Below, piece by piece: positions 1-52,982 of a DNA stretch of 64,000 nucleotides. Each line of letters begins with the position of its first letter. The first letter of the stretch is position 1. Position numbers and translations under genes: made by a program. The notes below the pieces were generated by a model. That model had not been told where the DNA came from and made no database searches. It saw only the letters and a program-made list of their open reading frames with translations. This DNA is from Paramecium tetraurelia (taxonomy: Eukaryota), in the NCBI GenBank assembly GCA_000165425.1, contig CT868020.1:1-64000 (forward strand), read 5' to 3'.

Positions 1-153
1 ACCCCAACCCCAACCCCAAACCCAACCCCAACTTCAACCCCAACCCCAAACCCAAACCCAACCCCAAAGCCAACTCCAAAACCCAAACCCAAACCCAAAC
101 CCAAACCCAAACCCAAACCCACAACCCAAACCCGAACCCCAAACCCAATACCC
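1..153. repeat. Telomeric repeats, C-strand (CCCCAA / CCCAAA mix), macronuclear chromosome end
   Basis: Tandem C4A2 and C3A3 units with variants from base 1, matching the Paramecium TT(T/G)GGG telomere. Confidence 0.97.
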
Positions 154-1076
154 ATAGTAATAGAAATATCTAAAAAAAATGATTATTTTTCAAATACTTT
201 TAATTGAAAAATATGCTAGTCTATAATTTATTTATCATTAATATATGATATAGCACTATTTATTTGAATTAAGTAATGAATGAATTGGTTGATACACTTA
301 ATGAACTTCCACAAAAATTCAATACGGAGGCGGAATTTTTACCATAAAATTTATGCTTGTTACTTTTTTTTAATCTAAACCATCAAAAATAAAGATTGTC
401 AGAACTATTTAATTTATATCCATTTATTAAAAATTTGAAAAAACATAGAAAAATAATAGATATAAACAAATATCAAGTATCACAGGTTGGTTAAATAAGT
501 ATTTAATTTAAAATTGGATTATAATAAATTATTATTTTTTTTTATGTTCTAAAATTTTCATTTTATAGTTTTTCTTGGATTTAATATTAATAGAAACATT
601 TATTAATTTAATTTATGGAACATTTGAGAAATACTTAAGTTAGCCCCACACCATTAGTAAAAGATTAGCAGGAATTTTTTAATTATGTTTAACATTAATC
701 ACTGTAATGATTGCTAACCTAAATTAGAAATGAAACAAATCAAACAGATGAGAATCAAAATTATTAAAGTATTGATATAGAATCAAATAAAATACCCTCA
801 GATTTATTGAAGGATTAATCATTTTACTATCCAAAAATATATAGGTTTGAGGGCTCTCTTGGTTTATTTTATTTAGCATTTTTTTAAGTTAAATGCTCAT
901 TTTATCCAACATATTTTTTTGATTAATCAAATATTGAATCAGGTGTTAGCCTAGCTTTGATTTATACTTATTTTGGGGTTATTATCATGACTCGGTTCTA
1001 AAAGTTTTAAATGGCAATGCTTATTCCATTATAATATCAGGCACCAGTATCCTATATAATATTCCTTAAAAATCCT

Positions 1077-1795
1077 NNNNNNNNNNNNNNNNNNNNNNNN
1101 NNNNNNNNNNNNNNNNNNNNNNNNNNNNNNNNNNNNNNNNNNNNNNNNNNNNNNNNNNNNNNNNNNNNNNNNNNNNNNNNNNNNNNNNNNNNNNNNNNNN
1201 NNNNNNNNNNNNNNNNNNNNNNNNNNNNNNNNNNNNNNNNNNNNNNNNNNNNNNNNNNNNNNNNNNNNNNNNNNNNNNNNNNNNNNNNNNNNNNNNNNNN
1301 NNNNNNNNNNNNNNNNNNNNNNNNNNNNNNNNNNNNNNNNNNNNNNNNNNNNNNNNNNNNNNNNNNNNNNNNNNNNNNNNNNNNNNNNNNNNNNNNNNNN
1401 NNNNNNNNNNNNNNNNNNNNNNNNNNNNNNNNNNNNNNNNNNNNNNNNNNNNNNNNNNNNNNNNNNNNNNNNNNNNNNNNNNNNNNNNNNNNNNNNNNNN
1501 NNNNNNNNNNNNNNNNNNNNNNNNNNNNNNNNNNNNNNNNNNNNNNNNNNNNNNNNNNNNNNNNNNNNNNNNNNNNNNNNNNNNNNNNNNNNNNNNNNNN
1601 NNNNNNNNNNNNNNNNNNNNNNNNNNNNNNNNNNNNNNNNNNNNNNNNNNNNNNNNNNNNNNNNNNNNNNNNNNNNNNNNNNNNNNNNNNNNNNNNNNNN
1701 NNNNNNNNNNNNNNNNNNNNNNNNNNNNNNNNNNNNNNNNNNNNNNNNNNNNNNNNNNNNNNNNNNNNNNNNNNNNNNNNNNNNNNNNNNNNNNN
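1077..1795. other. Assembly gap (N run)
   Basis: Run of N. Confidence 1.
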
Positions 1796-4182
1796 AATAT
1801 CAGCTAAGACTTATTATCCGCAATACTCATCAACCTTTTCCTTTAAATCATTCCCCATGTGACTTAGTAGATCCTATTTTTTCTCATTCTGAGGCTTTTA
1901 TTAGTTTGTCCTTTTATAATATTCTTGCAAGTCTAGTTTTTCTTTTGCTTTTCTTCAATTTCCTAGAGTAGTTATGCTTAATCCTTGATTGTGTTTTAAT
2001 TTTTAGAATATATTGATTTTATTTCTTAATTTAATTCTGATTTTTCAATCAGATCAACTTCTTTGTAGGTCAAAAGTTAATTAGTCAGATGTTCAATCAA
2101 AAATTCTGGGCAAAATTATATTAGTTTCAAGCTAATTTTATAAACAATTGTAGTACTAGATGAACTAACTATAGTCATTCTTGCTCTGTCTGTACCTTTA
2201 TCACCTTCAAGTCTTAATCCTGTTAAAACTCTCCCAAAAATGATATCACCAGGGTACAATTTTTTATAAATATAACTCTTTTAATATTAGATATATCCAT
2301 TATTACTATTACAAACAGCATAATCTGGAATTTTATAGGTGATATCTCCATCTTATGTTAAGCAAGACAAGTAATCTTCAGGTTAATTGCGAGTAATCTT
2401 AATAGGATGTTCTTTATAATATCTGTAGGATTTTCTGTGCTGCCTATTTCTAAAATATTCTGGTAATTTAATTCTATCAGTATTTATGGTTCGAATAACA
2501 TTACAGGATCCTTTATATATAATGTACATGTATTCTAGGAGGTCTCCTTCTTTGACTAAAACTTCATCGAGATGGAATCTTTGTGGTATTAATTAATTTG
2601 CTAATGGTATTAAAACAAAGGGCTGAATTTATTTAAAGAATCTCAAGGATTTGAGCATTTTGATTTTCTGTTCTAATTCATCTTACATTAAAACCATAAG
2701 GATATTTTTGAAATTTTCTCTGCTAATAGCCAATAGATGACAAGTTTCGCTAGCTTAAATGGAGGCTTTTCTTTATTAAACCTTTTCAACTTTCTTATAC
2801 TGAATATTATTAGATTTTGTCAAACCAGAGGAATGCCCTAATTCATCATCATTGGCTAGATTCATTATATAATGTTTTTCCTTAACATTGTCCTCCTTAA
2901 CCAAATTAATTATATTAGTATTTTGTCTCTGTAATTCTTTAATCTTTTATTTTTAGAAGGCTTCATCTTAGTGTCCTAGATCTTTGAGTTGTTGTTTAAT
3001 GAGTTACTCCTTGACTTCTTTGAGAGATTTTACATTGATATTCTCTAATTTTTCTTCTAGAACTTCCTCTGATCCCTTTTAGGTAGTTTCCATCATTGCT
3101 AACTCTCCGAAATGTTAGCCATCATAGAGAGATGATACTACCTATTCAATCACAGGGCCAAATTAGTCGAATTTCTTCTCGATTTTAACTACTACACTAC
3201 CTGATAAAATAACAAATAAATTATCCCCAAAATCGCCTTAATGAAATACATATTCTCCTGGAGGAACTTCAATATACTGACCGAGTTTGACTAGATTAAT
3301 TCTTGTGGATTTAGTAAATCTTTCAAAAAATATGAGTTTTTATACAATTTTATCTATTTCATCAAAATTGATACCATCAAAGGGTTAGCCTTATTCAAGC
3401 AATTCTCTTTTACTCTTTAGTTAATCAGTTAGAAATATTAATTCTTGTTCTGTTAACAAATTATCTTTTATTTTGAGGAACTTATTTTTGTCAGCATATA
3501 AATTGTGTATAAAAACTTCAGTGTCTGTTGTCATTTTCATGAATTTAACATCTAAATGTGCTAATTCATCATAGAGTGCTTTTATTTCTTCAGGATTTAT
3601 TTGCAATATTTTTTTGGTTGCTCTAAAATTGTCTAAATCGCATTATAATAATTGAGGTGGTTATCTTATTTATTAAATTTAAGAGAACAATTCATTTATA
3701 TTAATCGGATTAGGTTGAAGAACTTATTATTAATTTACAACTTCTATTGTTTATGATTTGGTCACACGTTTTGTAACTGAATTATTAGTTTTAGTAGTTC
3801 TTTTTGTTACAGATTGAATTAATGGTTGAGATTTAATAATTGATTATTAAGTACTCATGTGAGTAGGCATTGTGGTTGAATATTTATTGCTGAATAATTT
3901 CCTTTTGGTATGATAATAGACATCTTTATTTTTAGACTCTTTAGTTTCTTCATCATTTGAATACAAAGGCAATTCAAATAATGCATCTTTACTAGGTAAT
4001 TATAAGGATGTTTAAAGCCGAGTAGTTTTTCTTGACGTTTTGAAGTATTATGAATCACACATTACACTTTATTTCTGAATGTTGTTAAACATCAATGAAT
4101 CAATACTTGGTTTCGATGATGATTTTATTCTTGTTGTTGCAGTAGGTAGTCTCTTTGGTCTAAAAATTCCATTATTAATCAT
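1796..4182 (-). CDS. Cyclic nucleotide-binding domain protein, 3' end lost in the gap
   Basis: Code-6 ORF from MINNGIFRPKRLP. cNMP motif PGEYVFHQGDFGDNLFVILSGSV...GQHFGELAM at about 3260-3095; second degenerate domain LVKEGDLLEYMYIIYKGSC at about 2560-2500. Confidence 0.85.
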
Positions 4183-4301: not shown

Positions 4302-5472
4302 TCAATCCTTCTTAGATTTATCATTATCTTTTTTGAGGAGACCTTCTTATTCTTCATCCTTATTAACATCATCTAATAATTCATCAAGGAAGTCTTAATC
4401 TTGGAATAATTAACTAGAATAAATTAAAGGATTACTTCTAAGTGTTCTGGTCTTATGGTTATGCATTTTAATTGGGTTATTTAGGTTATTCTGGTTGTTC
4501 AGGCTATTCTTCTTACATACTCAATAATCTGGCCTACTCTAATAACTCATCATTCTCTTCTTCAATGCCATTTTCTACCTTTTCTTCTTATATCTTTTCC
4601 TTTTATTATTAAGTTTGTTAAGGTTATTATTATTATTATTATTACTAAGGTTATTATTATTATTGTTAAGGTTATGATTGTTATGTTAATTGTTATTATA
4701 ATCTTTAAGCTTCTTCTTCAAGACTCATTTTCATTATCATGGCTAGTTCTGGATCTAAATTTGGATCGATTCCACCATATTCAGAGAATTATCCACCTGT
4801 TCGTTATTAGGGAGCTTATTGCTCTTATCCAGGTTCAGCTTGAAAATCCGAATTATTTCCTAAGGATGAAAATAGGGTTTCTGTGGCACTCATTCCTGGT
4901 AAAATATTAATGTATTTTGAAGATTATCCTTTCTATACATTATCAAAGAATGTTTTCAATTTCTTCAGATGATCTTCATTCTACTCTCCAAAATTGATTA
5001 AATCAATTGCAATATTGTTTTTCTTTAACCTTTTTGCAAGACTGTAATAATTTAAATTATGTCATACTTGACTAAAGTATCTACTTCTTCTTCAATTGGA
5101 CTTGCAACAAATGCCACTATACGTTAATGCTATTGTTTATTGATTCTATGTTTCAAAGCCAATTATGCCTATTGAATTGCAACAGAAAACTTTAAATTGC
5201 CTAATTGTTAAATTTACTTGCATACCTTCTAATCTCGTTTTATGGAATTATCCCTAGATTAAATCTCTATCATTTGTAGGAGTCATCAACAATCTCACTT
5301 ATTTACCACCTCCTAAAATCAATCCCATTCCACTTTCCATGTTTGAATCAATAACTACATTAATATACAATTCAATGGCTTCTTGCTAAGCATTCCATCT
5401 AGATGGCTCTAAGTCACCATTTCTAGAGAATTCTGAGTTATCCAAAACTACTACGGCTGCTTCTAGAGGCAT
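4302..5472 (-). CDS. RPN10: 26S proteasome regulatory subunit RPN10/S5a (VWA + UIM)
   Basis: MPLEAAVVVLDNSEFSRNGDLEPSRW..., ALKHRINKQ, LAKRLKKNNIAIDLINFGE, DPELAMIMKMSLEEE; poly-Gln linker encoded by TAA runs; three tiny introns. Confidence 0.95.
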
Positions 5473-5767
5473 TTTTATTAAATTTAAATAATTAATAATC
5501 ACATTGGGATTGTTTTTGGATGCTCCTTGAAATTAATTTTTCTCAAATAATCATTCAAAAATACTCATTCATCGTTTAAATCGTTCAAATATTTAAATTA
5601 TATTTGTTATTTTTGGGTAATTAATCATTCCTTATTGATACACAAAAATAATAATCAAATACATAAACAAAGAATCAACAATTTGTAGGTGATAAGTCTC
5701 TCATTATATCTGAAAATACATATTTTTTAAATTAAATAACTCATTAATAATAGATAGATATTAATTT

Positions 5768-8700
5768 TCAAAATGGACTCCTTATGTAAATTTTAATTTT
5801 CAATCTTTATCTTCTGATTAAATAAATAATAACTAAAATTAAAATTACAAGCCCAATCAATATTAAAATAAAATAAATAAACATCCCTTTTGTTTCTAGT
5901 TTATTAATTAGTATTAATTCAACTTCTATAGTTTGTAAGTGAGTGGTTGCGACTAAATTGAATTTTTCAAATTCCTTTTCTACTTTTTACTATTCGATTT
6001 CATACCCAAATTTTCCAAAATAAAATTCAGAATCGTGTATCGATTCAAGTATTTGATGAGTAGTATTGAAAAAGTGAAATTTATCATCCTGTTACATTAA
6101 TATTTAATAAGTAGGATCATAAAATTATTTTTCCAATCTCAAATCGTAAATAGCTCTATTGCAAATTAATGTTTAATTCTCCAAGTAAAGTAGGATATTG
6201 ATATGATCACATTGCCTAAGTATTTTAGAAACATTTCCTATTTCCAATTAATATAATTTATTAAATTATAATTTATAGATTAACAAATATTCAAACATTA
6301 TTTAGCTGATTTAAACATAAATAGATTCCTATTCAAACTTACATTTTAACAGGGCAAAGCTGCTCTCAGCTAAAATTTCGATAATTTAGATAGGCTAAAC
6401 AGGCATTAAGTTTATTAGAAGATCTTAAAGTTAAAGGTAATCCAAAGTGATTATGCCAAGTATTGAATTGCTGGTTCCTTCTAATTGTAGTATAGATAAT
6501 AAAATTTAGAATGATATTGAAGTTCTAACGAATTTCATCTGAAGAACAAGATTTTCATTGTCGTCAAATGTGATTGAATTGTTAATTTCCAACTTAGACT
6601 ATATTGATAATAATGAGTTAAATTAAAAGAAGAATAATTCTTGCTGAATCCCAATCTGGACAATTATCAATTTCCCAAGTTTTTTGACCAGAAATGGATT
6701 GGCATTATTACTCGTAATTTCTATACTATTACTAGATTCCGATACAAAGGATCCTGTTTCAATATCAAAAAAAAAAATGTTATAATAGCAATATTGTATA
6801 TTATCATTCTACCAAAATTAAATAAATTAATAGTCTGAAATCTAAATTATTTACATATTATTGTTATTGAAAGTTGAATTAAGAAATTTACAAGTTATAT
6901 GATGAATATATTTATCTAAAGCTACGAAATAGCATTCGATTTCATTTTGAATTTTTGTTTTTAAAATGCAGTTAAGTTCAGATTTAGATTTGCATTCTAA
7001 TAATTTTTGAATTCTAAGAAATGGTCCTCGTAAAATTAAATTATTATTCTTAGATATGAATGCAGAAAAGATTTGACCATAAAAATAGTTAGCCAATACT
7101 ATATCTCTACTTACTAACTTATTTTCTATAAAGTTCTTAAGTTGTAATTAATGACACTTATTTTCAACTTTTAAATTTAATTGGCATTCTATAGATTTAC
7201 CAGTAATTTAAGAATTAAGTTAAATAGGGAATGTTTTATATTCTACCAATTTACTTTGAGTAGAATTTAAATTGTTCATTTAGAGTTCAATTTCTAAGAT
7301 ATTTGATATTCTCATTTAGTTATTTTCATCTTAGTATACCAATTTAGAATTTTGAAAAAAGAAATGCTTACTATTACATTTAATACTTGAAATCCATTAA
7401 ATTTCATCTTACCACTAAATTGCAAGAACCAATATATACATTTGTTCTGACTTAGTAGCAAGCAAACCTACAAAATTCGTATAAAATTAGTAAACAAAGG
7501 GTCTAACAAAAGTATAATCCTTGTAAGTTATATTTTCAGAGTGTTGTATCTCAAAGTCTTCTAGATAATAACAAAACAGGATGGTTAAAGATTGATGTAT
7601 ACCAATCAATTATTGTCCAAAACCAAATGGCAGCATATTAATTATTTATACATCATAAATTCTTAAATAATGGACTTATTCTTCTACTTACCATTATTAT
7701 AATACAAACAAAGTTTAATATTATATAGCTTTTAACTTAGAATTATCTTTATAGAACAATATATTTTCATTTAAAAATAGATCTTCTGGTATTTAATACA
7801 TTTATTATTTTAATTAATATGTATTATTTTGATTTAGATTAAAAATTATTGGAATTTAGTCTTTATAAAATAAAAGCAATGTGAGTCCAAATTAAATTAT
7901 TTTATCTGGAGAATATTCAAGTTACTATATTTACATTGACAAACAAGAATTATGATCAAATTTGTAAACTCTTGCTGAATTTACCCCTAATTTAAATAAC
8001 CAAAACACATTATTTTTTTTAATTAACTTCATACCTTATATATTAATTGATAAATCTTGACATTTCTAATCACAAGATGTAAATTTAAGAATATCATTCT
8101 TTAGAAACAAGGCTGATGTGTTTTCAAAGCCTAGTAATGTATAATTAAGTTTATGGAAGAATGGTTTACATTAATAGATTGAGTAAAAACTATCTAAGCT
8201 ATTAGGTTGTTCTTCTAATGATATTGGAGCTTATATTTCATAATAGATATCATTAACTTTCACATATTTCTAAAAAATAAACCTGGCTTGTGGTTAGCAA
8301 TAATTTTGTATTAAACTGTCCATTTAACAAAGACTTTCTTCATTTTCTTTAATTTTCACAATCTTATAACACATTATTAAATTTAAAGCAAAACTCTGTA
8401 TGCTGAAAATATAAAGGAATTGCTTTTTGGGTTTAATGAAAGGTTGAGTTAGATGATACTTATAGAATTACATTTAATTTAATTCTTCATCAATTTAATA
8501 AAAGTAACTAAGAGATTGGATGAATTTGATTTATTAATTTGGTATTTATATTGTATAGTTAATGTCAAGTGTTAATATTAAAGAGATCTCTTTTTCATTA
8601 TAAATAAATAAACGACCATTAATATAATTCATTTCATAAGAAGAGTTGAAGTTAGTTCTTAATTCAGTTTGCCAAATATAAATTTATCCTGAATTCGACT

Positions 8701-15198: not shown

Positions 15199-16635
15199 TC
15201 ATAATTAAATGGATTAGAATGAAGCACTATCCACCTCCTAATATACTCTCACTAAATCTTCATTATTCTTGAACATATTTGCTTTGCCTCTACTTAATAA
15301 ATTGAAATCTTCTTTACTAAAATGCCATTCAATCTATCCTCTATTCACATCAACCTTAATCATAGTAATTGAATTATCAAACACCTACCCACAATTACTA
15401 GATTTTATTTCTTCTTTTGCCTATATTCCATATTAATGCGTATGATATAGCTGATTTCTTCCGAAATGATTTATTAGAAACAATTAAATTCTAGACAATT
15501 CATAGATGATATTAGTATATACTAGTTTCTTTTTTGCTTATGCTATCAATTCTTTGCATATTTTTAGGTCTTTCTTATCTTTAGATTTCTTCAATTCAAT
15601 GTAATCCAAAAAGTAAAAACCCAAAACCTTATCAACAAGATCGCAATCCAATAATTACTCGTTGTAATAATTAAGCAGATATTAAATAGTCATTAATATA
15701 CTCATTATTGATCCCACTTAAGCTAGTATTTCACCTAATTTTGGATATACAATCTAAGTATCAATTGACATCGGATCAAGACGAATAAATAGATTAAGAT
15801 ATGAGTTCTTAACTAATAGAGTAGACCAAAATTGATTAGTTGTTGCACTTGTTATTAACTAGGCATTGTAGATAAAGCTTTTTGATTCAGAACTACTGAA
15901 TAAAATGCCAGTATCTATAGTAGCTTATGTTTAAGTCAATATCAATTAACCCTAATGAGAGATCTGAGAATCAAAGGTTAAATAATATTATTTCTTCACT
16001 GCCTAGAACTTTTATGAATATGGATCATACTACTTTAAATTCAACCAGAAACTGATATAATTAACAGATTTTTCAAAGAACTCTTTAATTTCTTCATCAG
16101 ATGCACACTCATATCCAATATCAAATAGAGTGGCATTACAAGAAGTGATTACTATCATAAGTTCGGTTGTATCATTCAAATCGTTATCAAAACCACTATT
16201 TTGAACTAAGGATAGATTGTCAACTCTTAAAAGACTTGTATTATAGGGGGAAATTGTTTGTGACTAATCTAAGAGAGAAAATGGTTTTTATGGAATACCA
16301 TTAATAAAATAGATTCCAATAGGAGTTAATATGTTACGTTAGAATCTGAATGGATCTACCTACTCGTTGCTATACTTCCAATAGCAAAATTCAAATAAGG
16401 CATCTTCATTATAAAAAATTTGAGAGTAGTTCTAAACTTTCATGAGGTTGGTTGAATTTGGTAGGATTTTGGAACTCCACCATTCATTCATTACATAGAT
16501 AAAATAGCTAAAACTAGCTACTAATACTAATATTGAACATATTCCACTGAGGATAGACTTTTACTCTTTTTCATCTAAGGAGATTTGTGGTTTATATTAG
16601 ACACCGAATATATCAATCATTTTAAGGTATTTCAT
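15199..16635 (-). CDS. Two-TM membrane protein (DIFG...YPKLGEILAQVGS family), paralog A
   Basis: 479-codon frame; MKYLKMIDIFGVQ, TM1 GICSILVLVASFSYFIYVM, TM2 after YPKLGEILAQVGSI. Confidence 0.85.
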
Positions 16636-18158: not shown

Positions 18159-19033
18159 ATGTACAATTCAAGATCCTAAGTCTCATGTATCAAATTAAAT
18201 TGACCATTTTTAGATCCCTAAGCATCACCTTCAAGTGGCAGAATTCAAAAGATCTCAGAGAAATTATCCACAATCTAAATTGGAGTAGAAAATGAGAGAT
18301 TTCAAAAACTTGAATAAGCTGAATAAAGAATTTAATAGGCTGAAGATGCTTTCAATGAATTCTAAGAATAGATTTTTACTAAATTGAACGGATTAAGGGA
18401 TCAAGTAATTTATATACCCATATCTGTGTAGTTAGGCAAATTATAAAAACAAGTAGAAGAAGATAAATTGGCTAAGGAATAAGCCAATGAAACTAAAAAC
18501 AGGGAAGTTCAAGCATTAGAAAAGAAATTTGAAAATGCTATTCAAAATGAAACATAAACTAGAAAAGAAGGAGAAACTAAAGTATTGAGATTATTGGAAG
18601 ATAAAACAGCATTGTTGAGAACTGAAGTACAAAAAGAAACAGCAGCAAGAGTAGATTCTATTGAAGGAATCCATTAAGGATTATAAAATGATCTACCCAA
18701 AATCTAAGAGGCCATCAGAAATGAAGCCAATGAAAGAGATGAGTCTGATCAGAATGTAAGTACATACTAACATTTAGGTTATGAAATCCATTACTGATGA
18801 ACTTGTTAAATTGAGTAATCTTATCAATGTTGAAAAGAGAAATAGAGATGAAAGTGAATAATCTATATTTGAAATGCTTAAAGATATCGTCAATAGAGTC
18901 AAAGTAGAATTGGATCAAGAAAAGAAAACAAGGTATAATTAATCACATAATTTATAGAGAATAATCAGAAGAACATTTACTCAGTTTATTGGAAGATACT
19001 TGTAATAAACTCAGTATTGCAGCAAATTTATGA
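18159..19033 (+). CDS. SF-assemblin / beta-giardin family striated rootlet protein
   Basis: Short Pro/Ser head then coiled coil with repeated E-x-x-x-R-x-x-x-E motifs, ending REQSEEHLLSLLEDTCNKL; four tiny introns. Confidence 0.85.
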
Positions 19034-19081
19034 TATTGAAATAAATACAAAATATAAAGAATATATTATATATAATATATA

Positions 19082-19561
19082 ATGCAATATCATTAATTTG
19101 ATAAGAACTTGTCTCCCTTACAAAGGTTGACTCTATTTCATGATGGTTCAATGACTAAGTTCTTAGAATTATACTTTGCTGAGAATGTCTAAACAGAAGT
19201 CATCAAAGAATCCTCTCAGTTTGATGATGACTATTTGTATGATTGGAAACAATTCATACCAGATGCTCAAATCTAAAGAGAAGTCATCCTAAAGAATCAA
19301 TCCTAAGGAAATCTCATCTATGCAAGATCATTATGGACTAAACTTAATTATGATAAAATTATGTAAGGCAACAAAAATACTGCTATTGGCAAGAATCTTG
19401 AAAAAAAACAAATCTCATAAAGAAGACAGATTTTAATTGCTTGTTAAACTAAATTACCAAAATCAAGTAATCTACCAATTAGAGATGTTCTAAGTAGAGC
19501 CTATCTAATTTATTAAGAAGATGACCTTCTAATGTATATCGAAGAATACATGTTATTTTGA
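19082..19561 (+). CDS. Chorismate pyruvate-lyase-like protein (DUF98/Ycf21/UbiC fold), 159 aa
   Basis: Intronless; LSPLQRLTLFHDGSMTKFLE, QREVIL, LIYARSLW, AIGKNL, LSRAYLI, LMYIEEY occur in the order typical of the family. Confidence 0.8.
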
Positions 19562-19573
19562 TAATTTATTTTA

Positions 19574-20302
19574 ATGTTTTAACAGCATAATAATACTATT
19601 TCAACGTCCCGATCTAATTCATCCATTAATCAAACACCAAGGAGATTAATACGTGTTGGCACTCCTTCTGGTATTGACAATGCAAGTGCTATGAAAAAGA
19701 ACGAAGAATTTAACAAATAAATAGAATTATATAAACAAAGAGAATCTCACTACAAGAAAATCATTTTTGCCAAAGATTAAGAAATATCAATGATGAAATC
19801 ACACATTTAGTAATTAGAAGAAAGTAAGTTCAAATTTAATATTAGATATCAATCAGAATAATCTGTCCAACCAAATATAAAAATAGATTTAAGATCTAAC
19901 TTAATAAGTCCAAATCTTGTTAGAATCATACAAGTAAAAATCTAATGATCAAAATTTAGTTAAAGGATAATTGAAATTGAAAATCTAAAAAAATCATAAG
20001 GTCATGATCATACAGAATTAGAAAGACAAGTTTTATAATTATTAAGAGAGAATTCTCAATTGATGAATAGTCTAACCGTTTCACACACTCAATAGGATGC
20101 CTTATCCAAAAAGAATAGTTTATAGAACATATCAAAAATTCATCCATAGGAGACTTCTTGGAAACAAAGGTTTATTAAATTGAATAAAGAATACTACGAA
20201 TTACAAGAAAAGCATGCCTTTTTAACAGCTGAATTAGAAAATAACAGATCTAACTTTCGATCCCCAAGTCTTGAAAGCTTTGAAGCTATTATAAGATAAT
20301 GA
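19574..20302 (+). CDS. Hypothetical coiled-coil protein
   Basis: Code-6 ORF with an intron gtaagttc...attag at about 19823. Confidence 0.7.
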
Positions 20303-26298: not shown

Positions 26299-27678
26299 AT
26301 GAAGTATGTTAAAATGGCTGATATTTTTGGAGTATAATTGAAATAAGAAATACATTAAGATGAAAAGCTTTAAAAATCAGTTTTTGGAGGAGTGTTATCA
26401 ATTATTGTAACTTCTGTTAGTCTAGGGTACTTTATTTATATAATGGATTAATGGAGGAATTCTAACATCCTACCAAAATCAACAAATATCATAAAGGCTG
26501 AAAACTATTCATCAATATAATTCACTAATGATAACCTATTCGAATTCTGTTATTGGAGGTACTAAGAGGGTGTAATTGATCCATTCAGAACTACTGATAA
26601 TATTTTAATGCCAATAGGAATGTATATTATTGATGGCATTCCCTAAACACCATTTTCAATGCTTAGTAACATAACAACTTTATCAGCATATAATAGTAAT
26701 TTAATCTATGTAGAGAACTTGAATATTATATAAAATAGCGGATTTAATCCTTAATTAAACTAAACCAAGGAATTGCTCATTATTATTACAAAATGCAATT
26801 AATACCTACTCTCTGTAAATTAGACATGTGCTAGCGATACTGATATTGAAAACTTTTTTATTTAATAAACTAATATGTTGAGCTTTTGGATAAATACCAA
26901 GTATTTTAATTCAAAAAGTTAGATATTCGATGTAGTCAAAAAGCAATACTACATTTCATTTGAGAAAGAAAGAGCACAATAAATATAAATAATCTTAAAA
27001 TAATAAAAAACCAGAATCGATTCAGGAATCCTATTTGAAAACTATGAAGAAAATGATTTTGTATTTGATGCTCAATTTTTAATGACTACATTATAGATCG
27101 ACTTTTTTAAGAAAATGATAAACATGGATGCATATATAACATTTACTATAAGATTAGATCCTTTCTCTTATGATACATAAGTTGTCTATCCTAAATTAGG
27201 CGAGATTTTAGCCTAAGTAGGATCAATCGTTAGTATGATAATGATTGTATAGTATGTAGCCTATTTTTACAATGAATATCTATTATAAAATAGCCTTGTA
27301 GAAGCTGTTTTAAAAAGTCTTGTTCTAAATTATGACTCTCTTAAAAATTCACAAGAAAAATCTAAAAAGATTACATATAATAATATACAAAAATTAGCAA
27401 AGTAAAAATTACTATTTGTCAACATAATAAATGAACTCTCTAGAATTGAACTATTTTTATTGAGCCTTTATGACAGTATCTAAATTAGTAAAATTTCATA
27501 GTTAAAATTTCAGATAGCTAATGAACCGAAGTCGGAATCATTTGAAGGAGTATTCTCTATGCTATCTAATAAAAGTTTAAATATAATAAATGAGGAAGAA
27601 TTTAAAGATTTGTTCAATGCATTTATATTTAATCCATTAGAAGCAAAGAAAATCATGATTCTAGAAAATATTTAATGA
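26299..27678 (+). CDS. Two-TM membrane protein (DIFG...YPKLGEILAQVGS family), paralog B
   Basis: 460-codon frame; MKYVKMADIFGVQ, TM1 GGVLSIIVTSVSLGYFIYIM, YPKLGEILAQVGSI. Confidence 0.85.
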
Positions 27679-49994: not shown

Positions 49995-52982
49995 ATGGAC
50001 GACATGAATAATTACGATGAGTTCGGAAATTACATAGGGCCAGAAATCGATTCAGAGGAAGAAGACAATGTGTAGATTGAAGAGGAATAAATGGCTGAGA
50101 ATGACCAAGAACATGTAATAGCAAATGTAAGAAAATGCTTCTATCTTTGAAGAGAGTGTACATACCTAATCAATAAGTTGCAGTCATTCTTAATGAAGAC
50201 AAATAATACTATCCAGATGCATAACAAGTGTATGGTCGAGATGTTGAAATCAATGTGCAAGAAGAGGATGCTTAGCCAATAACTCAGCCAATGATTGCTC
50301 CATTAAAATCAAAGGAATTTGATATCTAAGAGACACAGATACCTCAAACTACTTTCGACTATGAGTTTCTGTGTCGTATTTCTAAGAATCCAGCTTTGGT
50401 AAGAAATGTTGCAATTGTAGGCGGTCTGCATCATGGTAAGACATCAATGATGGACGTCTTTGTTAAGCAAACTCATCTTAAGCAATTTAGTTTGTAGAAA
50501 GACATCCGATACACCGATACTCGTCAAGATGAATAATAGAGATTGATCTCCATCAAGGCAATCCCTATGAGTTTATTGTTACCAAATAGCAAAGATAAAT
50601 CATATTTGATAAATCTCTATGACACTCCTGGACATGTGAACTTCATGGACGAGGTGTGTTGTGCCTTACGAGCCAGTGATGCCATGTTGCTCATTATTGA
50701 TGTGATTGAAGGAGTCATGATGACTACTGAAATGCTAATCAAGGCGGCTGTCAAGGAGAAGATGCCTATTGTAGTCGTGATAAACAAAATAGATAGATTA
50801 ATCATTGAGTTGAAGTTGCCACCTTCAGATGCCTATTTGAAGATCAAAAACATACTTGATGAAGTCAATATCATTATATCCGATAATGGAGGTAATTAGA
50901 TCATATCACCTCTCAATCATAATGTGGTATTTGGTTCAGGTTTATTTTAATTTGTTTTTACAATCTAGAGTTTTGCAAGGAGATATAACAATTTCTTAAA
51001 TCCAGAACAATTCACTCGTCTATTATGGGGAGACATCTACTACGATAATAAAGAAAAGAAATTTGTTCGTAAAATGTCACCATATGCTACCTAAAGGACA
51101 TTTGTTGAGTTTATTTTAGAACCCATATATAAGTTATTTGGGTAAGTGGTTTCTAAGGATAAGGAACAATCTAGAACCGTTCTTATTGAGCCAAGGGATA
51201 TCTCTCAAAAAAAGTGAATTCAAAATGGACACTAGACCATTACTGAAATTGGTTTGTTCTATCTATTTTGGTAATACCTCTTCTTTAGTTGATGTACTAG
51301 TGGAGTAAGTCCCTAATTCTCAGGAAGGTAGTAAAAGGAAAATGGAATTATATTATTAGGGTGACAAATCGAAATAATCATTTATTCAAGCATCTCAAGG
51401 TTCACACAAGGGACCATTATGTATAAATGTTGTGAAATTGTACAGTAGACCAGATTGCATGAGTTTCGATGCTCTGGGGAGAGTGGTCAGTGGAACTATT
51501 AAAAAGGGATAGAATGTTAAATTATTAGGAGAAAAATATAATATAGATGATGAAGAGGATATGGCAATCAGGAATATCAAGAACATATATATCTATCAAG
51601 GTAGATATAGAGTAGAAGTGAATAAAGTGCCTGCAGGAAATTGGGTGTTGATTGAGGGCATTGATTAATTTATTAGCAAGAGTGCTACTATTACAGAGGA
51701 TTCTTAACAGATGGACATCTTGAGACCTATTTAACATAACATTTTAGCGACTATGAAGATTGCCATAGAACCATTAGTTCCAAGTGAATTACCTAAAATG
51801 TTAGAAGGTCTACGTAAGGTAACTAAGAGTTATCCTATTTTGACAACTAAAGTGGAAGAATCTGGAGAACATATTCTATTAGGAACAGGTGAATTATATT
51901 TGGATTGTGTTATGCATGATTTAAGAAAAATGTATTCAGAAATAGAAATTAAAGTATCAGATCCATCAGTTCGTTTTTGTGAAACTGTTATTGAAACATC
52001 ATCAAAAACATGTTATGCAGATACTCCCAATAAAAAGAATAGGGTATTTTGATTAATATAGTATTAATTAGATTAAAGCATTGGCAACTCCATTAGACAA
52101 AGGTTTGACACCTTAAGATAAGGGTTTGGCTGAGAGAATTGAGAATGAAGAGATTGATTTATCATGGCCTAAGAATAAATTAACCGAATATTTTAAATCC
52201 AATTTTAATTGGGATATAATTTAGAGTAGATCTGTGTGGGCATTCGGTCCAGAGAAAACGGGACCCAATGTATTTCTAGATGATACTCTACCATCTGAAA
52301 CAAACAAATAGTTATTAACTGAAGTCAAAGACTATATGATTTAAGGTTTTTAATGGGCAACCAGAGAAGGTCCTTTGTGTGATGAGCCAATCAGAAATGT
52401 GAAATTCAAGATCATCGAAGCCAACATTGCTAATGTAATCATTCCATTTTAATGTAGGAACCCATTTATAGAGGAGGTGGTTAAATAATCCCCACAACAA
52501 GAAGGGTGTGCTATTCTTCATTCCTTATGGCAACCCCAAAAATCATGGAACCAATGTTATTAACAGAAATTATGTGTTTCCAAGACTGTATTCCTGCCAT
52601 CCACAATGTTCTATTAAGAAGAAGAGGACACATCTTATCAGAATAGGCAAAGCCAGGCACACCATTCTCAGTTGTGAGAGCCCACATTCCAACGATTGAT
52701 CACTTTGGATTTGAAACTGATCTTAGAGTACACACTTCAGGATAAGCCTTCTGTTTAAGTGTTTTCGATCATTGGTCATTATTACCAGGAGATCCTTTAG
52801 ATAAAACCATAGTGCTTAAGCCTTTAGAGCCAGCACCTTCAAATCATTTGGCCAGAGAATTCATGATCAAAACTAGGAGAAGAAAGGGTTTGAATGAAGA
52901 TGTGTCTATTTTGAAATTCTTTGATGATCAGTTCTTAATTGATTCACTCAAACAAGACAAAGACTATTAATAGTATATTTGA
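49995..52982 (+). CDS. SNU114: U5 snRNP 116-kDa GTPase (Snu114/EFTUD2), with an apparent +1 frameshift near 51170
   Basis: [72 protein letters not shown]. Confidence 0.96.

Follow-up and report, generated by a model that had tools for sequence, protein, structure and literature searches.

The window analysed here comprises 64,000 nucleotides of contig CT868020.1 of Paramecium tetraurelia, and a single-exon gene for a protein of the DUF98/Rv2949c-like chorismate pyruvate-lyase family was found on its forward strand (Table 1). With the ciliate genetic code (NCBI table 6) the frame is unbroken over 159 codons, from the ATG at 19082 to the TGA at 19559-19561. Glutamine is encoded by TAA at eight positions (Q5, 37, 65, 75, 95, 113, 122, and 145), by CAA six times and by CAG twice, and no in-frame TAG is present. 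The reading of TAA as glutamine fits, because the column of Q113 holds an ordinary glutamine in the homologues of Blepharisma and of a further eukaryote (P0005, see below). With NCBI table 11 or the standard code the eight TAA codons interrupt the frame, and for this reason a standard-code list of open reading frames (ORFs) would not contain it. An earlier note on this DNA had described an intronless ORF of 159 amino acids, in agreement with the continuous frame and with a P. octaurelia protein of equal length (159 amino acids, 97% identity over 100% of the query). This protein is the closest relative, together with a P. sonneborni protein (160 amino acids, 85% identity). Among sequencing records, 20 of 24 listed entries contained the locus in full or in part, each as contigs of unknown or guessed kind, and none of the 20 is recorded as RNA.

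Table 1. Features of the chorismate pyruvate-lyase family gene and its upstream region in the 64,000-nucleotide window.
Feature	Position	Strand	Remarks
Single-exon gene, 159-amino-acid DUF98/Rv2949c-like chorismate pyruvate-lyase family protein	19082..19561	+	Stop codon included
AT-rich spacer, 48 nucleotides	19034..19081	+	Separates the ATG from the TGA of the preceding ORF on this strand, which ends at 19033; 5′ region presumably very short
Codon of Arg66 (REVIL motif)	19277..19279	+	Invariant in 48/48 members; putative substrate/product carboxylate-binding Arg
Codon of Glu155 (IEE motif, last strand)	19544..19546	+	Invariant in 48/48 members; putative counterpart of the UbiC active-site Glu

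A Pfam scan yielded a single match to PF01947 (Chorismate pyruvate-lyase Rv2949c-like, formerly DUF98), in one stretch of residues 19-156 against profile positions 2-140 of 149. The whole-protein hidden Markov model (HMM) score was 61.6 bits (E 1.1e-16), and a score at or above the gathering cut-off of 22 bits was taken to define membership. The same scan, carried to E<=10, gave no match to the UbiC-type family PF04345, to the UTRA family PF07702, to GntR, or to any second Pfam family. The protein is built of one domain, which extends from about residue 10 to the C-terminal end, and an N-terminal winged helix is absent. Structural comparison of the protein model revealed the alpha+beta fold that is common to chorismate lyases and UTRA domains, and in both comparisons performed the solved chorismate lyases scored above every UTRA domain. 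By its sequence, the Paramecium protein is thus a member of the DUF98/Rv2949c-like chorismate lyase family. The earlier note had made the same assignment from a series of motifs, all of which were recovered in the order it gave, i.e., LSPLQR (residues 10-15), DGSMT (21-25), LE (28-29), REVIL (66-70), IYARS (79-83), IG (in IGKNL, 102-106), SR.Y.I (SRAYLI, 138-143), and M.IEE (MYIEE, 151-155). The HMM score and the fold, on which it had made the assignment depend, both bear it out.

For a conservation analysis 48 full-length members were aligned, comprising 10 ciliate-type, 18 cyanobacterial/algal, and 20 other bacterial sequences. Nine columns are invariant in all 48 (G22, T25, R66, L70, A81, S83, R139, Y141, and E155), and each of these nine residues is retained in Paramecium. 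In UbiC of Escherichia coli the product is held by an arginine and a glutamate (R76 and E155), of which R66 and E155 of the Paramecium protein would be the obvious counterparts. We take R66 to correspond to Arg76 and E155 to the glutamate of UbiC (E155), the structural alignment giving ranges (model 3..159 versus UbiC 14..159) and not residue pairs.

The gene is not confined to Paramecium, where the orthologues carry the label "unnamed protein product" in the records. The best matches outside the genus were a protein of Tetrahymena malaccensis (189 amino acids), P0005 (149 amino acids), and a protein of Blepharisma stoltei (156 amino acids), which is named "DUF98 domain-containing protein". 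With a profile search, T. utriculariae and T. thermophila were recovered as well, making three Tetrahymena species in total. The T. thermophila protein (EAR91150.1/XP_001011395.1, P0098) is annotated as [quoted passage not shown]. A chorismate lyase in ciliates is therefore already part of the public annotation, and the gene is not new as a kind. Literature searches that combined chorismate lyase with Paramecium or Tetrahymena, and both chorismate and 4-hydroxybenzoate with Tetrahymena, did not retrieve a publication linking them. The deepest split of the ciliates has Blepharisma on one side and Paramecium and Tetrahymena on the other, and because the gene occurs on both sides it is probably as old as the phylum. 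It is shown to be old in ciliates by its presence in these three genera, and to have been inherited vertically within the Oligohymenophorea.

As an additional source of relatives, metagenomes were scanned with an alignment of close ciliate-type proteins. Two of the 84 stretches that matched the pattern were relatives (L001 and L002). L001 encodes P0005 with 99% identity at 4736-5185 (+), and P0005 is also found in an MMETSP transcriptome. The neighbouring genes encode a protein kinase, a FAM135/DUF676 protein (esterase), and a Nup120-like nucleoporin. The long uninterrupted standard-code ORFs, a G+C content of about 40%, and the eukaryotic neighbours identify L001 as a compact-genome eukaryote. 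Since this organism uses the standard code, the ciliate-type enzyme also occurs outside the group of code 6 users. L002 is a contig of low G+C content with a partial DUF98 homologue at 5400-5804 (+). It is taken to stem from another ciliate, because the homologue can be read only with nine TAA/TAG codons as glutamine. A short insert after its A-K-S motif resembles a tiny unspliced intron, and the gene is apparently not intronless there.

The PF01947 family is overwhelmingly prokaryotic, and therefore bacterial contamination or a chance open frame had to be weighed as an explanation of the ORF. Both were rejected, and the likelihood that either applies is negligible. The eight in-frame TAA codons make the frame unreadable for a bacterium, and the gene lies between ORFs in the ciliate code, 48 nucleotides downstream of one and 12 nucleotides upstream of the other, on a contig of eukaryotic genes. 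Nearby ORFs encode a protein kinase fragment, an MLLE domain, RRM domains, and a CHORD domain; cNMP-binding, kinase, GST, PI3/4-kinase, EFTUD2, and DOMON proteins are encoded at larger distances in the window. The base composition is host-like, with a G+C content of 29.4% (26.3% at third codon positions) that resembles the neighbours. Orthologues are present in two further Paramecium genomes and in other ciliates, and the E value of the Pfam match (1.1e-16) speaks against a chance frame. The locus is a genuine ciliate gene, and contamination, already disputed in the earlier note, is excluded together with recent transfer.

The origin of the gene was addressed with two unrooted maximum-likelihood trees (IQ-TREE, LG+C20 PMSF), one with 53 rows and one with 44 rows after removal of partial and longest-branched rows. 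Archaeal, mycobacterial, and plastid-encoded members lie outside these trees, and cyanobacteria are enriched in them by the make-up of the query profile. The actinobacterial rows are Micromonospora and a metagenome-assembled genome of the Acidimicrobiales, both of the bacterial type, and Rv2949c is not included. Paramecium and Tetrahymena grouped together (97/96* with three partial rows, 91/93 without these). Blepharisma grouped with two unnamed proteins (91/88 and 92/69). P0005 stood alone in the 44-row tree and was placed in an unresolved fork in both trees. Cyanobacteria and algal nuclear copies (Cymbomonas, an MMETSP transcript) formed a clade that did not contain any ciliate-type row (100/98* and 100/100*). 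The trees do not name a donor, because they have no root and because the ciliate-type lineages lie, without a resolved order, between the cyanobacterial/algal clade and the other bacterial types, at a center where all three types meet.

The earlier note had proposed that the gene was horizontally acquired or derived from an alga. Such an origin is possible, but the trees and profiles do not back it: the ciliate-type rows are not nested in the cyanobacterial/algal clade, and the profile scores disagree. Tetrahymena proteins scored 89-96 bits with a cyanobacterial/algal profile versus 60-63 bits with a bacterial-type profile. The order was reversed for Paramecium (58-61 versus 77-81 bits) and for P0019 and P0030 (56-62 versus 73-74 bits), and Blepharisma was tied. 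Profile affinity was therefore rejected as evidence of origin, as it gave contradictory answers among ciliates. An ancestry in the cyanobacterial/plastid lineage, by endosymbiotic or algal transfer and thus as a relic of photosynthetic ancestors or of algal prey, would agree with several traits. An S-x-W motif and a C-terminal helix are common to ciliate-type and cyanobacterial/algal members and absent from the bacterial type. The NCBIfam model NF037993 scored Tetrahymena with 88.4 and Blepharisma with 78.1 bits versus 27-56 bits for bacterial-type rows (34 proteins scanned). The structure cluster nearest to the Blepharisma protein in the ESM Atlas is cyanobacterial (TM score 0.92), and nuclear copies that group with cyanobacteria do exist in algae. 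Furthermore, a starred branch (98/93* and 100/100*) separates the bacterial type, with Ktedonobacteraceae, Acidimicrobiales, and further groups, from all remaining rows. However, in unrooted trees a bacterial-type clade does not make the ciliates sisters of the cyanobacteria, and the sampling was biased by cyanobacterial-like rows in the search profile. The motif, the helix, and the NF037993 scores are suggestive, and they may be ancestral. An origin in the cyanobacterial/plastid lineage is thus regarded as unlikely.

A better candidate, with a probability approaching one half, is an ancient transfer to an early ciliate or a wider eukaryotic lineage, the donor being a prokaryote other than a cyanobacterium and perhaps one missing from the sampling, or else vertical descent from early eukaryotes with widespread loss. 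The ciliate-type rows form long-branched lineages of their own, and in the best 53-row tree all 13 are on one side of a branch, the support of which is weak (44/77), so that a single eukaryotic clade is not firmly indicated. The type also occurs in the standard-code eukaryote L001 and on the ciliate-code contig L002. The genomes of 185,579 prokaryote species were scanned twice for patterns, with the close ciliate-type alignment and with P0019 alone as queries, and 26 and 48 stretches matched. None of these was confirmed by tblastn as a relative with the ciliate-type motifs, and such scans find close motif matches only. No donor group emerged from them. The gene is old in ciliates and is not a recent transfer.

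The closest annotated relative, T. thermophila EAR91150.1, shares with the Paramecium protein the PF01947 domain, the ciliate-type clade, and the organization as a single-domain nuclear gene. It differs in its length of 190 amino acids, with about 20 additional N-terminal residues, an internal insertion, and the C-terminal helix, none of which are found in Paramecium, and its annotation is computational. The T. malaccensis protein, from a close relative of T. thermophila, is about 31-32% identical to that of Paramecium. The cyanobacterial lyases (NF037993), including Synechocystis sll1797, share the Pfam family, the fold, and the invariant residues. Sll1797 is described in PMC11808434 as a demonstrated chorismate pyruvate-lyase, the deletion mutant of which grows only with 4-hydroxybenzoate. 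Its product feeds plastoquinone and not ubiquinone. In the cyanobacterial-like proteins P0013 and P0014 the conserved I-G is replaced by I-W. The namesake of PF01947, Rv2949c of Mycobacterium tuberculosis, belongs to the same Pfam family and is actinobacterial; its 4-hydroxybenzoate is used for p-hydroxybenzoic acid derivatives and phenolic glycolipids. The text of PMC7205293 mentions Rv2949c, and the word chorismate does not occur in it. UbiC of E. coli (PDB 1g1b, 1g81, 1jd3, and 1fw9) belongs to a different Pfam family, PF04345, and was 15-18% identical in the structural alignment. Identity was 20-23% with AF1396 of Archaeoglobus fulgidus (PDB 2nwi), an archaeal DUF98 protein without assigned function. 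It was 4-14% with the non-catalytic UTRA effector domains of the GntR/HutC regulators PhnF, DasR, and YvoA. UTRA domains always follow a winged-helix DNA-binding domain, whereas the Paramecium protein has neither such a domain nor a PF07702 match. An ESM Atlas search with the Blepharisma protein also revealed that in methanogen-type archaea DUF98 occurs in fusion with a GHMP-kinase-like beta-ribofuranosylaminobenzene 5′-phosphate synthase. This hints at a role of the archaeal members as a source of 4-hydroxybenzoate, or of a related arene, in the synthesis of methanopterin.

Judged from sequence and predicted fold, this gene of the P. aurelia complex, which is genuine, nuclear (macronuclear-type), and passed on by vertical descent, probably encodes a small, presumably cytosolic DUF98 chorismate pyruvate-lyase that provides 4-hydroxybenzoate for ubiquinone. 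The formation of 4-hydroxybenzoate and pyruvate from chorismate is the most likely activity, because of the fold, the invariant residues, and the existence of characterized members in two branches of the family. The enzyme would eliminate the enolpyruvyl side chain of chorismate without a cofactor, in an internal pocket that the family-invariant residues Arg66, Arg139, Tyr141, Ser83, Thr25, and Glu155 would line. A cytosolic location is suggested because an N-terminal extension is absent and the domain begins at about residue 10, leaving no room for a presequence; the algal copies are longer, at 237-306 amino acids. The product would then be prenylated in the mitochondria, and in an aerobic ciliate ubiquinone would be the obvious sink. 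Chorismate is presumably available in Paramecium. Richards and co-workers reportedly confirmed in 2006 a pentafunctional arom complementary DNA in T. thermophila. Chorismate synthase of this species appears among purified recombinant enzymes in a table of PMC11633415. A literature search on shikimate and Paramecium retrieved nothing on the ciliate pathway, including the available portions of PMC11528492, PMC13466520, and PMC3879968.

Several observations weigh against a lyase function in Paramecium. The fold is also that of non-catalytic UTRA ligand-binding domains. With NF037993 (cyano_chori_ly, an equivalog model) the protein scored 49.3 bits, below the cut-off of 175 bits. The other ciliates scored 43.9-88.4 bits, and P0013 (186.2 bits) was the sole protein to pass among the 34 scanned. 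When 1.84 billion representatives were searched exhaustively with phmmer, only 19 proteins were found at E<=1e-3, which marks the Paramecium protein as a divergent member, and no ciliate members are more divergent than the three Paramecium proteins. They end after the last strand and lack the C-terminal helix of the other ciliate-type and the cyanobacterial members. All three have a serine at position 112, in the segment I-E-x-[FR]-R-E, where 43 of the 48 members have a glutamate, which T. thermophila also keeps; as this position varies within the family, Ser112 does not exclude membership. In addition, Leu149 replaces a proline found in 39/48 members, and Met157 a phenylalanine found in 43/48. 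Finally, shikimate or ubiquinone genes were not found among the 43 ORFs scanned in the window. It could be that the fold was kept and the function changed in Paramecium, e.g., to a small-molecule binder, to a lyase with a different chorismate-derived substrate, or to the production of 4-hydroxybenzoate for a sink other than ubiquinone. Such a change appears rather improbable, as the family-invariant residues are complete, solved chorismate lyases rank above all UTRA domains, a DNA-binding or other additional domain is absent, and the identity of 85-97% across three Paramecium species indicates a constrained function. A chorismate pyruvate-lyase is therefore the preferred reading.

Should the enzyme prove active, the shikimate pathway of ciliates would gain a clear purpose, and Paramecium and its fellow ciliates would join the small number of eukaryotes in which chorismate is the direct precursor of the ubiquinone head group. 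In the eukaryotes studied the head group is derived from tyrosine or phenylalanine, according to PMC8122105. For Plasmodium, a fellow alveolate, a chorismate lyase gene was not found and ubiquinone synthesis seems to be independent of chorismate, as stated in PMC6763611. An active enzyme would thus represent a real metabolic difference within the alveolates, between ciliates and Plasmodium. It would also predict that respiration is sensitive to inhibitors of the shikimate pathway and is rescued by 4-hydroxybenzoate. It is tempting to speculate further, albeit tentatively, that a cytosolic DUF98 lyase forms the ubiquinone ring directly from chorismate in ciliates and in one or more other eukaryotes with compact genomes. 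The enzyme lineage would then match the ciliates in age and stand apart from both the cyanobacterial/plastid and the other bacterial types. It would be the missing sink that explains why a shikimate pathway is retained by ciliates that depend on dietary aromatic amino acids, and it would set its owners apart from the related apicomplexans, for which a chorismate lyase gene has not been found (PMC6763611). For annotation, the Paramecium proteins now recorded as unnamed could be named DUF98-family putative chorismate lyases. This is a modest addition and not a surprise, because the Tetrahymena orthologue is already annotated in this way.

Downstream of the gene, only 12 nucleotides (19562-19573) separate its TGA from the next ATG-initiated ORF on the same strand (19574-19948), which encodes a coiled-coil-like protein without a Pfam match. 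Either the downstream gene begins later, or the 3′ end of the first gene overlaps the 5′ end of the next. Several further features of the window were noted. The ORFs at 15199-16635 (-) and 26299-27678 (+) encode proteins of 478 and 459 amino acids in the ciliate code, without a Pfam family and with near-identical N-termini. From their sequences they appear to be paralogues, on opposite strands and about 10 kb from each other, i.e., a local duplicate of an uncharacterized gene, probably for a membrane protein. The translation of the cNMP-binding ORF at 985-4182 (-) contains a long run of X (window positions about 985-1860), indicating a stretch of N (an assembly gap) in or beside this gene, and the G+C content of positions 1-2000 falls to 17.4%. 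Lastly, four overlapping or adjacent ORFs at 50135-52982 (+) contain successive domains of EFTUD2/Snu114, the GTPase of the U5 small nuclear ribonucleoprotein, in the order EFTUD2 N-terminus, GTP_EFTU, D2, EFG_III, EFG_IV, and EFG_C, and look like a single gene interrupted by short ciliate introns or by changes of frame.
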